In this document: positions 7,285 through 50,252 of the stretch, one piece after another | Layout of the letters: each line of letters begins with the position of its first letter | How positions within the stretch are numbered: the stretch's first letter is position 1 | Source: Candidatus Latescibacterota bacterium | GTDB taxonomy: Bacteria; Latescibacterota; UBA2968; GCA-2709665 | Direction: 5' to 3' | DNA length: 64,000 nt | Assembly (NCBI GenBank): GCA_963667175.2 | Contig: CAXXXF010000005.1 | Span: forward strand, 22,431-86,430 | The notes under the pieces: generated by a model | The model's input: only the letters and a program-made list of their open reading frames with translations | Database searches by the model: none | Told to the model about the DNA's origin: nothing | Translations under genes and position numbers: made by a program

Positions 7285-7362
7285 TGGGGTGAGTGAGGGG
7301 ACTTGAACCCCCGACCTCCTGGGCCACAACCAGGCGCTCTAACCATCTGAGCTACACCCACC
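7285..7362 (-). tRNA. tRNA-His(GTG)
   Basis: Minus-strand cloverleaf GGTGGGTGTAGCTCAG...TTGTGG...GGTTCAAG...CACTCACCCCA, with G-1, C73 and an encoded CCA. Confidence 0.95.
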
Positions 7363-7378
7363 ACGAACTGCCACAATA

Positions 7379-7452
7379 CACTCCCGGCAGGACTCGAACC
7401 TGCGACCTACTGCTTAGAAGGCAGTTGCTCTATCCAGCTGAGCTACGGGAGC
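7379..7452 (-). tRNA. tRNA-Arg(TCT)
   Basis: Minus-strand GCTCCCGTAGCTCAGCTGGATAGAGC...TTCTAA...GGTTCGAG...CGGGAGTG; CCA not encoded. Confidence 0.95.
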
Positions 7453-7496
7453 CACAAGTCCGGCACACGAAGCCGTCCGTTGAAAAGCGGTGGTTA

Positions 7497-7525
7497 AAGA
7501 TAGCCCAATCGCCCGGCGGTGTCAA
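7497..7525 (-). promoter_or_regulatory. sigma70-type promoter for the tRNA-Arg/tRNA-His pair
   Basis: Minus strand TTGACA, 17-bp spacer, TATCTT. Confidence 0.7.
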
Positions 7526-7603
7526 GCGAAAACAGCGCGACGGCGGGCTATGTAAAGATATGTAAATTTGGGCTCTATGTCGTATCGCGAATCAAAATCC
7601 GTC

Positions 7604-7632
7604 TTGCCATGCAGACCCATGTAAGGTATATT
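7604..7632 (+). promoter_or_regulatory. Putative promoter for the beta-barrel gene
   Basis: TTGCCA, 17-bp spacer, TATATT, about 60 nt before ATG 7695. Confidence 0.55.
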
Positions 7633-7694
7633 TCAACCCGTAAAACCCGGACGCCAGCCTCCCGTTCAAGAACCAGAGATCGAGGAAACCCGGT

Positions 7695-8660
7695 ATGCGT
7701 TTGTACTCAGCGTTCTGTCTGTTCATCATCACGCAAGGCATCACGGCCCCGGCCGCCAACGCACAAGGCGGCGTCAGCTGACGCCGCCCCGTGCTTCCGG
7801 GCGGAAGCCTGATGCAGAACAGCCTGGGCGTACAGGACCACCTGAAGCTCAGCGTTCACTACGACTACGAGTTCCTGTCCGACCCCCACTACGGGTCTCG
7901 CGCGATCCCGAACGTCAATCGCGAACGAACCGATAATGCCACGACCACCATCTTTGCCTCGTACGGTGTCACCGGACGCATCGGTCTCGCGCTCGCCGTC
8001 CCTTTTCGTTCCGTGACCAACGAAAAGGTGCTGCTGCGCGGCCAGAACCGCAATCAGTATGAAGGGGGGAAGTATGTCCGGCATGCTTCCGGGCTGGGCG
8101 ATATTGTGGTCATGTTAAATTACGCCGCCCCTCAAATCGCGGGCTTTCCCGGTATGAACGTCGGCGTTGGATTGAAGCTGGCAAACGGATCCGTCAATGC
8201 AATAGACCAATACGGCGAACGTTTCTCCGACAATCTTCAGATCGGATCGGGAAGCGTGGATCCGATTCTCGCGTTCAGTGTGTATCATGGACTCGAGGAC
8301 CTCACGGTCTCCGGGAGCGTCTTCACCCGCATCACCACACGGCAGAACATTTACGGCTACAAATACGGAAACGAACTGCACGCAAGCCTGTCTCTGGAAT
8401 ACGCCGGCGGCGGCCGGTTCTTCGGCGGTTTGAGTCTGAAGAATCTGGTCACGTCAAGGGACCGATACCAGTTCGGCAAGATTACAAGGGAACGCGGCGG
8501 GAGGTGGACGTATCTTTCGCCGGAACTGGGGATCCATGTCCTGGACAATCTGAGCGTTGAATTTCACTTGCCCATCGTCTTATTTCAAAACGTGAACGAA
8601 AGCCAGTTGACGTCCGACTATCTGATTGAACTGAGCACGTCCTATGTCTTCTCGCTCTAG
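7695..8660 (+). CDS. Outer-membrane beta-barrel ('transporter'/MetA-pathway-like), probable selenoprotein via in-frame TGA at 7779-7781
   Basis: GAGG RBS and ATG 7695 give signal peptide MRLYSAFCLFIITQGITAPAANA|QGGVS*RRPVLPGGSLMQ, in frame with ORF 7791..8660. The body has SGLGDI and GSGSVD motifs, amphipathic beta strands and a C-terminal YVFSL. A SECIS-like hairpin lies at 7793-7808. Confidence 0.65.
7793..7808 (+). promoter_or_regulatory. Candidate bacterial SECIS hairpin
   Basis: gcttcc-gggc-ggaagc begins 11 nt after the in-frame TGA, and its apical loop starts with G. Confidence 0.5.
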
Positions 8661-9912
8661 TGTCCCGTCCCAAAAACACCTCAGCATTCGGCCGCCGATT
8701 CATTCCGTCTCGCAGCGTTGCCTTCGCTCGCCGACCCCGCCCGGGTCGCCTGCACTCAGGCGCCTTGCGAGCCTGGGGACTCGTCGGCCGAATTCAGGCA
8801 ACCTATCTCCGGGACGGAACGCCTGGCGATCCGGCGTTCGCCTCATCGGAAAAACAAGCGGCCGGTTCGTCTTCTTTGCCCTGTCCATGTTTGTTCTTGT
8901 ATCGGGTTGTTCGCTCTATTTCGACGACGAAGAGCCGGAGCAGTTTTACGAAATCGAAGATTTCGAGATCCTGAAACTCGGCGTGAATATTTCTGATATG
9001 GTCATGGACCCGATCCAGCCGTATCTGTACCTTGCCGACTACGGAAACAACCGGATACTGCGCATTCACACCGGCAGGCAGATGGTGGTGGAAGGGAGCC
9101 TTCAGGTAGGTTCGCACCCCATCGACATCGACGTCACTCCGGACCAGCGCCGTCTGGTGGTGGGACTGAACGGCGAATCGAACCTGAAAATAATCGACCT
9201 GAATGCGTTCGCCATCCTGAAGACCGTTCCGTTTTCGCTGAATGACATATCCCACGTCGTCTGCGGGACCGATTCGATTGTCTACGTGTCCTCGCTGGAT
9301 GAACCGCTGCTGATTGCGGTATCCATTGCAGACAATCTGGAAACCAGCGGGAACGTGCGTTCGGGCGCACTGCTGATGAACCACCGCGACCGTAAGCTTT
9401 TCGTTGCCGCCAGGAACAATGTCCTGAAATACGACGCCTCAGGGCATTTCCCAACGACAGAGACCACCTCAACCCGCTTCAGTTTCTCCGCCAGGATCAA
9501 CGATTTCGTCATGGGACCTTCCAACGACCATCTCTTTCTTGGGCTGGCGGACCCGGACGATCGCGGCAACGTCAAGGATCTGTGGGTATTCAGCGCCCGC
9601 GATCTGACGCTGACGGGCAAATACGAAATCAAGTCTCCCGCTCTGGGGCTTGCGTTGAGCCGCGACGGCCGACGTCTGTTCGTCGCGCCCACAGACGCCG
9701 ATGAAGCAGGTGTGTTTATCGTTGAATTCAATACGCAGACAAAACTGGAGACGAACTATCTTCTCGCGGCCGGAAATCTCAAAGAACGCGGCATCGTCAT
9801 CGATAACGACGATCGGAATCTTTACGTCGCGGTCTATACGCCCGGCGACGACGATACGTTCGAGCCCTACAATGTCGACTCGTTCGATCTTCAGCGAATC
9901 AGAATCGACTGA
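8644..9912 (+). CDS. YncE/YVTN-like beta-propeller lipoprotein (true start uncertain, possibly near 8887)
   Basis: Hydrophobic stretch ending in lipobox LVSG|C; repeats such as VGSHPIDIDVTPD and LGLALSRDGRRLFV. Confidence 0.7.
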   Translation: MSSRSSVPSQKHLSIRPPIHSVSQRCLRSPTPPGSPALRRLASLGTRRPNSGNLSPGRNAWRSGVRLIGKTSGRFVFFALSMFVLVSGCSLYFDDEEPEQFYEIEDFEILKLGVNISDMVMDPIQPYLYLADYGNNRILRIHTGRQMVVEGSLQVGSHPIDIDVTPDQRRLVVGLNGESNLKIIDLNAFAILKTVPFSLNDISHVVCGTDSIVYVSSLDEPLLIAVSIADNLETSGNVRSGALLMNHRDRKLFVAARNNVLKYDASGHFPTTETTSTRFSFSARINDFVMGPSNDHLFLGLADPDDRGNVKDLWVFSARDLTLTGKYEIKSPALGLALSRDGRRLFVAPTDADEAGVFIVEFNTQTKLETNYLLAAGNLKERGIVIDNDDRNLYVAVYTPGDDDTFEPYNVDSFDLQRIRID

Positions 9913-9963
9913 CGAACCCGCACCGCCCGGGCAATCCGTTGTTGCGGCCGTACGCAGAACGGT

Positions 9964-10692
9964 TTACGGTCGGACGCGTCCGCCCTGTATTTCGCGATAG
10001 GTTCTGCACAGACGGGAAACAGGACAAACGCCGCAGGAAGGGTTTCTGGCGGTACACACCGTCTTGCCGAAATCAACCATGTTCATGTGAAACGGCCTGG
10101 CCTGGCCCTCAGGGACCAGAGGCGCGAGTTCCGTGTGTGCTTTCTCGCGACCGCATCGCGCCGAGACTACCCCAACCCGACGCAGAACGCGATACACGTG
10201 CGTATCCACCGCGCACAGGTCGCGGTCGAAGGCAAAGGCCAGCACAATGTAGGCCGTCTTGATCCCGATGCCTCGATGTTCCGTCAACAGGGTGACCGCG
10301 GCCCGGTTCGGCAGGTCCCTGAGAAAGTCCAGATTCAAGCTCCCCCGTTCTTGGTCCAACCAACATAGAAACCCCTGCATATTCGGGGCCTTCGAATTCG
10401 CCAGGCCCGCCACGCGGATGGCGTCCTTCAGTGCCGTTGCGTCTGCTGCCATCACGTCACGCCAATCCGGAAACCGCGCACGCATCCTGTCGTACGCCCT
10501 GTCCCGGTTCTCGTCATTCGTGTTCTGGGACAGGATGGTCCGCATCAGCGCATCGAGGCCGTCCGGACGTACGCGTTTGAGGTCCCGGGATGAGCCGCCG
10601 AACGTTTCATCGAGCACCCTGCACATTTCTGCAATCACTGCCACACGCGCCTGACGCGGCGGGCCTTTCCACCACGCATCCAGAGCAATCAT
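9964..10692 (-). CDS. nth: Endonuclease III-family HhH-GPD DNA glycosylase with 4Fe-4S motif
   Basis: ILSQNTND, GIGIKTA, VDTHV and CTARNPSCGVCPVSRLC motifs. Confidence 0.88.
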   Translation of the reverse strand: MIALDAWWKGPPRQARVAVIAEMCRVLDETFGGSSRDLKRVRPDGLDALMRTILSQNTNDENRDRAYDRMRARFPDWRDVMAADATALKDAIRVAGLANSKAPNMQGFLCWLDQERGSLNLDFLRDLPNRAAVTLLTEHRGIGIKTAYIVLAFAFDRDLCAVDTHVYRVLRRVGVVSARCGREKAHTELAPLVPEGQARPFHMNMVDFGKTVCTARNPSCGVCPVSRLCRTYREIQGGRVRP

Positions 10693-48751: not shown

Positions 48752-48807
48752 GAAAATGCAACGGCAGACGACCGGGGGTCTCCCCTCGCGTCTGCCGTTG
48801 CATTTTC
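48752..48807. terminator. Long perfect inverted repeat (19-bp arms) after nfuA
   Basis: gaaaatgcaacggcagacg (48752-48770) and cgtctgccgttgcattttc (48789-48807). Confidence 0.65.
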
Positions 48808-48824
48808 AGGCGATTGAAAAGGTC

Positions 48825-50252
48825 ATGCAAACGTCTATCCGGACACGTCCATTCAGGATCGTTCTCGTTTCGACGTACGAACTCGGGCGGCAGCCATTCG
48901 GTCTCGCATCGCCGGCCGCATGGTTGCGTGCGCATGGAATGGACGTTGTGCTCGCGGACGTCTCGATCGGCGATTTTCCGCACGAAGCCGTTCGCGCCGC
49001 AGACCTTGTGGCGTTCTACGTCCCGATGCATACCGCCACGCGGCTGGCCGTGCCCCTGGTGGGGAAGGTGCGCGGCTTGAACGCCAATGCACACCTCTGT
49101 TTCTACGGTCTTTACGCGCCGGTCAATGAATCTTATCTGCGCGGTCTGGGCGCGCAGACGGTCCTCGGCGGGGAATTCGAAACGGGCCTGCTTCGTCTCT
49201 GCAACCGGCTCCGGGCGAAACCGGAAGCCTGGCGCCGCCGGTCCGAACCCGTCGTCTTTCTGGGCCGACAGCGGTTTCTTCCGCCCGACCGAAGGGGTCT
49301 GCCGGACCTCTCAAAGTATGCACGGCTCTCCACGGGCGCCGGACAGGAAAGGATCGTGGGCTATACGGAGGCCAGCCGGGGCTGCAAACATCTTTGCCGC
49401 CATTGCCCGGTGGTTCCCGTATACAACGGCCGATTCCGTATCGTGCAAACGGACGTCGTGCTGGACGACGTCGCGAAACAGGTTGACGAAGGGGCCGCAC
49501 ACGTCACGTTTGGCGATCCCGACTTTTTCAACGGCATCGGACACGCGGTACCCCTGATTCAGGAACTCCACGCGAGGTTTCCCGAGTTAACGTACGACAT
49601 TACCGTCAAGGTCGAACACCTTCTGAAATACAGCCGTTTTCTTCCCGTACTGCGGAATACCGGGTGCGCCATTGTTACGACCGCCGCGGAGTCACTCGAC
49701 GACGGCGTCCTCACGCTGATGGACAAGGGCCATTCGGTCGACGACTTCATCCAGGTCGTACGACTTTTCCGCCGGTACGGCCTGGTATTGAACCCCACGT
49801 TCATCCCCTTCACACCCTGGACCACCGCTGATCAGTACGCGGGTTTCCTTGACACCCTCGCAGAACTGGACCTGATCGAAAACGTCTCCCCGGTGCAACT
49901 GACCATCCGGCTTCTCATTCCCCGGGGATCGAGACTTCTGGAACTCGGCCGGGTCCGGGGCCTGGTCGGGCCGTTTTCAGACGAGGCGCTGACCTACCCC
50001 TGGAGTCATCCCGATACCCGTCTGGACCGGCTACAGCGCGAACTCACCCGGTTGGTTACGCGGCTTCAGAATCGGGACGCCACCCGGCGGCGGATCTTTC
50101 ACCGGATCCGTTCGACCGTCGATACACGGCTGGATCGTCCGACGTCCGTTCGAGATCCGGATTTCGAGCCGCCGCACCGGCCCGTCCCCCACCTCACCGA
50201 ACCCTGGTACTGCTGAGCGGAGCCGACCGAAGAGCAGTTTGCTCTTGTGTGA
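48825..50252 (+). CDS. CUAEP-tail radical SAM selenoprotein (TGA 50214-50216 read as Sec)
   Basis: Contains STYELGRQPFGLAS and CKHLCRHC (CxxxCxxC). The C-terminus reads EPWYC*AEPTEEQFALV*, matching the CUAEP/CCAEP tail. A hairpin follows the TGA. Confidence 0.88.
50230..50246 (+). promoter_or_regulatory. Candidate SECIS hairpin for the CUAEP tail
   Basis: aagagca-gtt-tgctctt. The loop starts with G, 20 nt after the TGA. Confidence 0.6.

Follow-up and report, generated by a model that had tools for sequence, protein, structure and literature searches.

We describe a gene in a 64,000-nucleotide stretch of DNA (hereafter the window) from Candidatus Latescibacterota bacterium (GCA_963667175.2, contig CAXXXF010000005.1, positions 22,431 to 86,430 of the forward strand; coordinates below are those of the window unless another contig is named). 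On comparative evidence, the UGA at 7779-7781 in this gene is very probably decoded as selenocysteine (Sec), and we consider it likely that 7695..8660 encodes one exported polypeptide, composed of a signal peptide, a Sec-bearing arm and a COG4313/FapF-like barrel, which would work by the channel mechanism proposed below. A preliminary description, made from the letters of the sequence, had suggested Sec at this codon. The suggestion is now backed by the conservation of the TGA, a covarying hairpin, the presence of selA, selB, selC and selD in the genome, and Cys at the aligned column of distant homologues.

With the TGA read as U, the frame 7695..8660 is open, and tblastn matches in related loci cover residues 1-321. 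After the leader the frame reads QGGVS, the TGA and then RRPVLPGGSLMQ, in the same frame as the listed open reading frame (ORF) 7791..8660; the mature N-terminal segment is accordingly QGGVS-U-RRPVLPGGS. The cleavage pattern A-x-A followed by Q, conserved in related loci, would put Sec at about residue 6 of the mature protein, in agreement with the position initially proposed. The earlier joining of the leader to the barrel ORF across the TGA is borne out by the sequence itself and by the match of the read-through protein to PF13557 Phenol_MetA_deg (26.3 bits against a cut-off of 22, residues 95-290). No family of NCBIfam release 20.0 matches the full-length or the mature protein (E<=1 or E<=0.001).

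The conservation of the TGA is the first point to be considered. A protein database search returned 69 homologues, of which 65 are annotated without the N-terminal part (typically 282 residues, starting at MLPGGS or the next Met), and a search with the N-terminal 70 residues as the query returned only the same shortened entries. The four homologues that reach back past the column have Ser (two) or Trp (two) there. At the DNA level, 67 related loci were fetched from contigs representing one genome per species; 58 of them (L008-L065) belong to the family, and nine are remote PF13557 relatives. All but one of the 58 family loci (57) have an in-frame TGA, never TAA or TAG, as the codon ahead of RRP (RIP in a single case), and it follows in frame on a leader ending in A-x-A and on Q-G-G-[VI]-S. 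The sole exception, L062, is a match that begins at residue 123 and has no recognisable N-terminal part. Six phylum-level labels are represented (Latescibacterota, Gemmatimonadota, KSB1, Calditrichaceae, Fidelibacterota and Marinimicrobia/Neomarinimicrobiota), besides loci labelled 'FCB group', and identity to the window protein ranges from 93% down to 33%. In a scan of the phylum, 18 of 168 genomes had a homologue, and each of the 34 matches contained exactly one TGA; among them is a second paralogue in the window's own genome, described below.

The alignment of 56 mature read-through proteins has 38 invariant columns, including U6, R7 and P9; around the Sec site U, R, P, L, P and G are invariant in all 56 sequences. 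The Arg-Arg pair 3' of the TGA is encoded by both CGN and AGR codons across the loci; therefore, selection acts on the protein past the TGA. The codon at the position of GTG 7791, the start of the listed ORF, is ATT, CTG, GCG, ACC or TCA in other loci, and since non-start codons stand there elsewhere, GTG 7791 is not a conserved start. The TGA is not an assembly error, because contigs from independent runs retain it: X1 (7625-8041) has one difference and X6 (7600-7907) none, while X18, from a metatranscriptome library, covers the leader, the TGA and the hairpin (7674-7941) with ten differences, none of them in the TGA. Run X2 and most of run X18 cover only parts of the stretch. We take X18 as a weak hint of transcription, as DNA can occur in RNA libraries. 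The preliminary description had named a sequencing error or a strain-specific nonsense mutation as what would overturn the proposal, and neither was found; it had also asked for Cys or a conserved TGA at this column in homologues, and the TGA is conserved, with Cys appearing in distant homologues only.

The hairpin previously noted past the TGA, with a 6-bp stem and a G-led loop (GCTTCC/GGGC/GGAAGC), stands where it was described, 11 nt downstream. Across the family the stem starts 11-12 nt past the UGA and has 5-6 bp, an NGGN loop and a fixed spacing. The minimal stem-loop of the E. coli selenocysteine insertion sequence (SECIS) lies about 11 nt after the UGA and requires a G in the loop. In an alignment of 53 distinct 45-nt stretches beginning at the TGA, columns 16-20 pair with columns 25-29 around the four-base loop, and RNAalifold gives the same five pairs; a sixth pair (columns 15-30) can form in 36 of the 53, the window among them. 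The stem is laid over codons for Leu (CTN), Pro (CCN), Gly-Gly (GGN GGN) and Ser (AGY). Its pair 18-27 joins the third base of Leu to the third base of the second Gly, both synonymous positions, and is CG in 30 sequences, UA in 18, UG in three, AU in one and GC in one, with none of the 53 unpaired. Over the whole stem, 94.3% of the cells can pair; displacing the 3' partners by one to three columns lowers this to 26-70%. The covariation score was not equalled in any of 500 shuffles, a figure that kinship of the sequences can inflate; a better case for selection at the RNA level is made by the slid control and by the pattern at silent sites. Since the TGA recurs in 57 of 58 loci and the hairpin covaries at silent sites, the set of features is beyond chance. 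In the genome's own selD, the loop GGTC occupies nucleotides 21-24 counted from the T of its TGA, and the GGGC loop of the barrel gene lies at the identical distance. The Rfam scan of the window returned only two tRNAs, and no bacterial SECIS family at the gathering score.

A separate candidate near this site, a 16-bp palindrome around the TGA (7770-7785), was rejected: it is incidental because the codons GTC AGC TGA CGC generate the symmetry, and it is absent from AT-rich lineages.

The genome has the genes needed for Sec insertion. The preliminary description asked for selA, selB, selC and selD to be confirmed, and all four are present: selA (551 bits), selB (355 bits) and tRNA-Sec (73 bits) are clustered at G000:C6:264741-268256, and selD (360 bits) lies at G000:C13:163286-164209, each over its cut-off. 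Judging by one in-frame TGA at the position of the catalytic Cys/Sec, this selD is itself a predicted selenoprotein gene. The other Sec-type gene that had been pointed out in the window, with a CUAEP tail, also stands and belongs to a known selenoprotein family: the radical SAM gene 48756..50216, read through its TGA, yields ...WYCUAEPTEEQFALV and matches NF040546 (CUAEP/CCAEP-tail radical SAM (seleno)protein) with 604 bits, the cut-off being 500. In the region of that gene (48756-50252) the TGA is at 50214-50216 with a hairpin downstream, and the next-best family is ArsL (arsinothricin radical SAM; 295 bits, below cut-off).

Further evidence comes from the wider family. A profile of the 56 mature read-through proteins, run against 1.84 billion representatives, returned 2247 proteins at E<=0.001. 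The close relatives begin past the TGA or carry Trp at the Sec column. The distant full-length ones (E of about 1e-17 to 1e-27, 21-24% identity) nearly all have a Cys pair at the mature start, typically in the form ...AQ[GST]CC[ST]xGxP. With a crude proxy for full length (at least 280 residues, a Met start and a hydrophobic leader), 92 of 147 new representatives were retained; within 25 residues past the leader, 58 of these have CC, 20 have C-x(1-4)-C, three a single Cys and 11 none. In a MAFFT alignment the Sec column coincides with the first Cys in 12 of 14 distant sequences, the other two having Ser and Glu. Comparison of the Sec-type set with 23 Cys-Cys-type sequences by hhalign gave a probability of 100% (E 4e-44) and set S-U-R opposite T-C-C, with low column confidence at that place. 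The classical exchange of Sec for Cys is, as far as these alignments tell, present only between subfamilies: in the Sec subfamily one U precedes Arg-Arg, at the place where the wider relatives have two Cys. NCBIfam 20.0 has no model for the eight Cys-Cys-type relatives compared with it.

In the Flavobacteriaceae, a DUF3179 (PF11376) gene lies directly downstream of the Cys-Cys barrel in seven of seven loci scanned, a link shown for that clade alone from a single query protein (P0139; eight loci, L085-L092). DUF3179 figures among the selenoprotein families, with the motif UxxC/T, in the available part of a 2026 review of the prokaryotic selenoproteome (PMC13188914). These loci resemble ours in the barrel family, in a reactive chalcogen at the same mature N-terminal position and in a downstream partner of about 360 residues; they differ in that the partner is DUF3179 and not a propeller lipoprotein, and in having CC where the Sec type has U-R. 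Two genes upstream of the Cys-Cys barrel in locus L089 there is a DsrE/DsrF-like gene.

Other readings of the TGA have to be weighed against these data. It could be a true stop, produced by a nonsense mutation, pseudogene formation or an assembly error, leaving the barrel ORF dead or leaderless. Gene callers do end there, and nearly all database homologues (65/69) are without the N-terminal part, but we assign this reading next to no probability: distant lineages share the TGA at one column (57/58 loci) with intact barrels and in-frame leaders, the hairpin covaries, independent contigs agree, and 38 invariant residues are not expected in a decaying gene. There could also be two cistrons, namely a 28-codon leader peptide ending at the TGA and a barrel restarting at GTG 7791 or ATG 7812, with the hairpin serving for coupling or regulation. 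Short upstream ORFs with hairpins are known to regulate, and in the window a start-type GTG stands three codons past the TGA; this arrangement is nonetheless extremely improbable in our opinion. It would deprive the barrel of the signal peptide it needs, the GTG position holds a non-start codon in many loci, and the RRP between the TGA and that position is conserved as protein with synonymous codon changes. Moreover, the 'leader' resembles a cleavable signal peptide in every feature, including the conserved A-x-A and Q, and the distant homologues are single proteins with Cys at the column.

The UGA might instead be read as a standard amino acid (Trp, Cys, Gly or Arg), either because the code is reassigned or because the hairpin aids near-cognate suppression; some support for this would come from the database entries with Trp at the column (P0037, P0054, P0072, P0179 and P0193). 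We judge it very unlikely. Loci of near-identical peptides show TGA where the entries show W, and TGA terminates genes in this genome: the lipoprotein gene discussed below ends at TGA 9910-9912, where all of its orthologues end. Long matches such as selB and selA are without internal stops, the genome has the full Sec machinery with a selD hairpin of the same geometry, and its G+C content of 56-64% is unlike that of the known UGA-reassigned lineages. It may also be that Sec is inserted but acts mainly as a selenium-dependent expression switch or a structural residue rather than reacting with a substrate. In favour of this, the N-terminal tail that carries Sec is modelled poorly, the mature barrel is without a partner Cys and Ser forms exist, yet we think it unlikely in view of the invariance of U, R, P, L, P and G in 56 sequences, the Cys pair at this place in 78 of 92 wider relatives, and a thiol:disulfide reductase gene linked to the barrel in 25 of 57 loci. 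The linked reductase points to redox or ligand chemistry at the Sec residue.

The AlphaFold2 run suggested in the preliminary description (on a 56-row alignment) produced the expected barrel fold, with a mean predicted local distance difference test score (pLDDT) of 84.9 and a predicted template-modelling score (pTM) of 0.83; residues 1-20, including Sec, are at about 50. In a Foldseek search of the PDB the first match was FapF (5o65; E 1e-12, TM 0.69) and the second the 12-stranded COG4313 channel Pput2725 (4rl8; E 6e-10, TM 0.69/0.76), with FadL/TodX-type and porin barrels far behind. In the available part of its description, the first 14 or so residues of Pput2725 are folded inside the lumen, entering it from the periplasm, and constrict the channel, and channels of this type, with SphA and TcpY named alongside, are linked to the uptake of hydrophobic compounds (PMC4493636). 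By analogy, the arm with Sec, about 25 residues ahead of the first strand, is expected inside the barrel's periplasmic entrance or right at it, so that the N-terminal plug suggested in the preliminary description would fit the family.

The window protein shares with Pput2725 of Pseudomonas putida F1 the PF13557 match, the fold and a small monomer-sized barrel after a short N-terminal segment. Their identity is only 12%, however, and the available part of the Pput2725 report describes no reactive Cys or Sec, while Sec is invariant in the window type, whose gene also travels with a TlpA-like reductase and a propeller lipoprotein. FapF, the barrel of Pseudomonas amyloid secretion, is the best Foldseek match and similar in barrel size; it exports unfolded protein, according to the part of the report available (PMC5557850). 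It differs in that the identity is 15%, the neighbour genes scanned have no Fap-related Pfam match, and nothing in the window points to protein export.

The pairing with a beta-propeller lipoprotein, also part of the preliminary description, holds well beyond the window. Partners were counted with hidden Markov models (HMMs) built from the lipoprotein and TlpA-like alignments and run against the 57 loci, the window and the paralogue in the same genome. A lipoprotein ortholog lies directly downstream of the barrel in 44 of the 57 loci and in the window (134-542 bits). By tblastn the lipoprotein was reached only in 12 congeneric loci, the orthologues elsewhere being seen through Pfam scans, alignment and the HMM. 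In its alignment (14 sequences, 25-52% identity) the lipobox Cys never varies and leads into an acidic stretch (CSLYxDDExP); there are also weak matches to lactonase/NHL-type propellers and a conserved C-terminal PGDxDSFEPYNxxSFDLQRIxI.

A TlpA/ResA-like gene lies directly upstream of the barrel in 25 of the 57 loci (13 of the 44 of the lipoprotein type and all 12 of the paralogue type). Its product, of 150-210 residues, has a leader, an invariant FWATWCxxC and a cis-Pro TPT. It is thus similar to the periplasmic reductases of the TlpA/ResA/DsbE type in its signal peptide, WCxxC and TPT, and has weak NCBIfam matches to StoA, ResA, TlpA and DsbE; these matches, however, are far below cut-off (best 54 bits against 210), and the proposed client is an outer-membrane barrel with a single Sec. 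TlpA itself keeps the metal-binding cysteines of ScoI and CoxB reduced. The paralogue type, found in 12 of the 57 loci, is represented in the window's own genome by a second TGA-barrel (G000:C12:204955-205884, minus strand; motif AQPGVS-U-RRPVLPGGRML), and the best TlpA-like match of that genome (172 bits, the next being 59) lies immediately upstream of it. The operon there (L084, G000:C12:200955-209884, minus strand) comprises an NHL propeller, the TlpA-like gene, the barrel and an S-adenosylmethionine (SAM) methyltransferase, and is followed by a gene for a glutamate-synthase-domain protein. The linked reductase, the second paralogue and the Cys-Cys motif of distant homologues are additions to the preliminary description.

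The gene order in the window's genus is kept in 12 loci: a type I phosphodiesterase-family gene (minus), two tRNAs, the barrel, the lipoprotein, an endonuclease III-like gene (minus) and an HD-domain gene. In other phyla the flanks vary and three neighbours recur, the lipoprotein, the TlpA-like protein and an FG-GAP/ASPIC protein. The last, an FG-GAP/ASPIC-UnbV protein of about 590 residues with a type IX secretion C-terminal domain, stands beside the barrel in ten of 16 distant loci scanned (Table 1).

We propose the following explanation. On the comparative evidence SelB and tRNA-Sec very probably decode UGA 7779-7781, directed by the hairpin 11-12 nt downstream, and expression of the full-length protein would depend on the selenium supply. 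The N-terminal segment would probably sit inside the barrel's periplasmic mouth or right at it, its single selenol being the reactive group; wider relatives would have a Cys-Cys pair instead. A dedicated periplasmic TlpA-like CxxC thiol:disulfide reductase would keep the selenol reduced in the oxidising periplasm, and the beta-propeller lipoprotein would act with the barrel as a second subunit. Such a module could capture a sulfur- or selenium-seeking substrate and pass it across the outer membrane, the candidates being a soft metal or metalloid, or a sulfane-sulfur or disulfide compound.

A single Sec in a barrel that has no resolving Cys, together with a dedicated CxxC reductase, fits three chemistries: a ligand for a soft metal or metalloid, covalent capture of sulfur or selenium with release by the reductase, and a redox gate. 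That a reactive chalcogen at the channel mouth is serviced by the reductase has, in our estimate, a roughly even chance; each specific substrate is well below that. One version is that Sec or Cys-Cys is a covalent carrier that attacks a poorly soluble sulfur or selenium species at the barrel, for example elemental sulfur, polysulfide, a disulfide nutrient or selenite, the Se-S or S-S adduct being released in the periplasm by the TlpA-like reductase. We consider it improbable; if true, it would be a device for thiol- or selenol-mediated uptake through the outer membrane. Outer-membrane thiol proteins have long been postulated for the mobilisation of sulfur, and to our knowledge none has been identified.

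Several observations weigh against the explanation we prefer, a Sec-bearing exported channel. The case for selenium in the protein is a comparative one, strongly supported as such. The selB gene was found in 17 of the 18 barrel-holding genomes, the remaining one (G044, 80% complete) having no selB seen, and this co-occurrence barely discriminates, because 128 of the 168 genomes of the phylum have selB. No Cys form was found in the close family; the only non-TGA members seen there are two Ser forms (P0017 and P0019) known as protein entries, and the Trp in three or four database proteins is probably the product of gene calls with TGA taken as W. The mature barrel has no Cys to resolve an oxidised Sec, and the plug position of Sec is drawn from homology to Pput2725 alone, since the model leaves residues 1-20 at low pLDDT. 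Among the partners, the propeller has no invariant Cys other than the lipidated one in its 14-sequence alignment, and the window's own barrel has no adjoining TlpA-like gene. Finally, the window's lipoprotein is without the start codon of its congeners, which begin it (ATG or GTG) 24 codons before the Cys: GTT stands there in the window and ATT in the closest relative (L008). The candidate starts are ATC 8845, ATG 8887 (with a leader too short) and a far-upstream ATG 8644 that reads through a repeat.

That repeat is an insertion that separates the barrel gene from the lipoprotein gene; the same genome holds 40 matches to it, of which 16 are near full length (79-89% identity). Its depth in metagenome contigs is 10-30 times that of the flanks, and loose contig ends occur at 8660-8662 and 8820-8821. 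It resembles a small non-autonomous mobile element or a repetitive extragenic palindromic (REP)-like repeat. The upstream signals named in the preliminary description (the promoter, the GAGG ribosome-binding site, ATG 7695 and the signal peptide) are all where it placed them. Promoter-like sites in 7400-10000 number four, with 1.2 expected, by the sigma-70 consensus, which may not be the phylum's own. Genes for tRNA-His (GTG) and tRNA-Arg (TCT) occupy 7285-7452 on the minus strand just upstream of the promoter-like site, and are kept there across the genus. The coordinates are collected in Table 1.

Table 1. Features of the barrel locus in the window, and related loci with an FG-GAP/ASPIC-UnbV neighbour
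Feature	Position	Strand	Details
Sigma-70-like promoter match	7604..7632	+	TTGCCA-17-TATATT; 10 of 12 consensus positions
Shine-Dalgarno-like GAGGA	7682..7686	+	8 nt ahead of ATG 7695; direct reading
Full-length selenoprotein barrel, predicted coding sequence	7695..8660	+	321 residues; Sec would be residue 29; stop TAG 8658-8660
Signal peptide MRLYSAFCLFIITQGITAPAANA	7695..7763	+	23 residues, hydrophobic, ends A-N-A then Q; putative cleavage site, placed by the conserved pattern
UGA, very probably selenocysteine	7779..7781	+	about mature residue 6; motif S-U-R-R-P
SECIS-like hairpin	7793..7808	+	stem 7794-7798/7803-7807; extra pair 7793-7808; loop GGGC 7799-7802
Dispersed repeat, about 160 bp	8661..8822	.	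between barrel and lipoprotein genes; not part of the system
Beta-propeller lipoprotein gene	8845..9912	+	lipobox Cys 8908-8910; stop TGA 9910-9912; start codon uncertain
FG-GAP/ASPIC-UnbV loci			L020, L025, L026, L030, L031, L055, L057, L059, L063, L065

We regard the barrel family as absent from current selenoprotein lists. The available part of the 2026 review names two outer-membrane selenoproteins, the MtrB/PioB-type barrel GSU2204 and a TonB-dependent receptor of the FCYXU type, and no barrel of the COG4313/PF13557 type (PMC13188914). No such barrel is mentioned in the available parts of a 2022 review (PMC9312934), Haft's 2022 preprint, deep-Sep (PMC12013277) and BSepDB (PMC13326102; its family table lay outside the search), and a full-text literature search returned no paper that joins selenocysteine with COG4313, Phenol_MetA_deg or 'MetA-pathway of phenol'. 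The known outer-membrane families (NF041027 and NF049945), both listed in the 2026 review, are likewise predicted selenoproteins of that membrane; they are other barrel families, to which the window protein has no match, and its Sec is at the mature N-terminus in SURRP. Apparently undescribed as well is the Cys-Cys motif near the start of the mature chain in many COG4313-like barrels (78 of 92 representatives). The decoding mechanism is ordinary, and it is the protein context that is unusual.

If the reading is true, a widespread family joins the bacterial selenoproteome as its first member in the COG4313 channel family. Public gene predictions systematically truncate this family at the TGA (65 of 69 database homologues), and its entries are therefore without a signal peptide. 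There would be a conserved extracytoplasmic module made of a TlpA-like reductase, a Sec or Cys-Cys barrel and a propeller lipoprotein, found in mostly uncultured phyla of the FCB group, including the abundant marine Marinimicrobia; the paired Cys of so many wider relatives suggest that chalcogen chemistry takes place where an outer-membrane channel opens.

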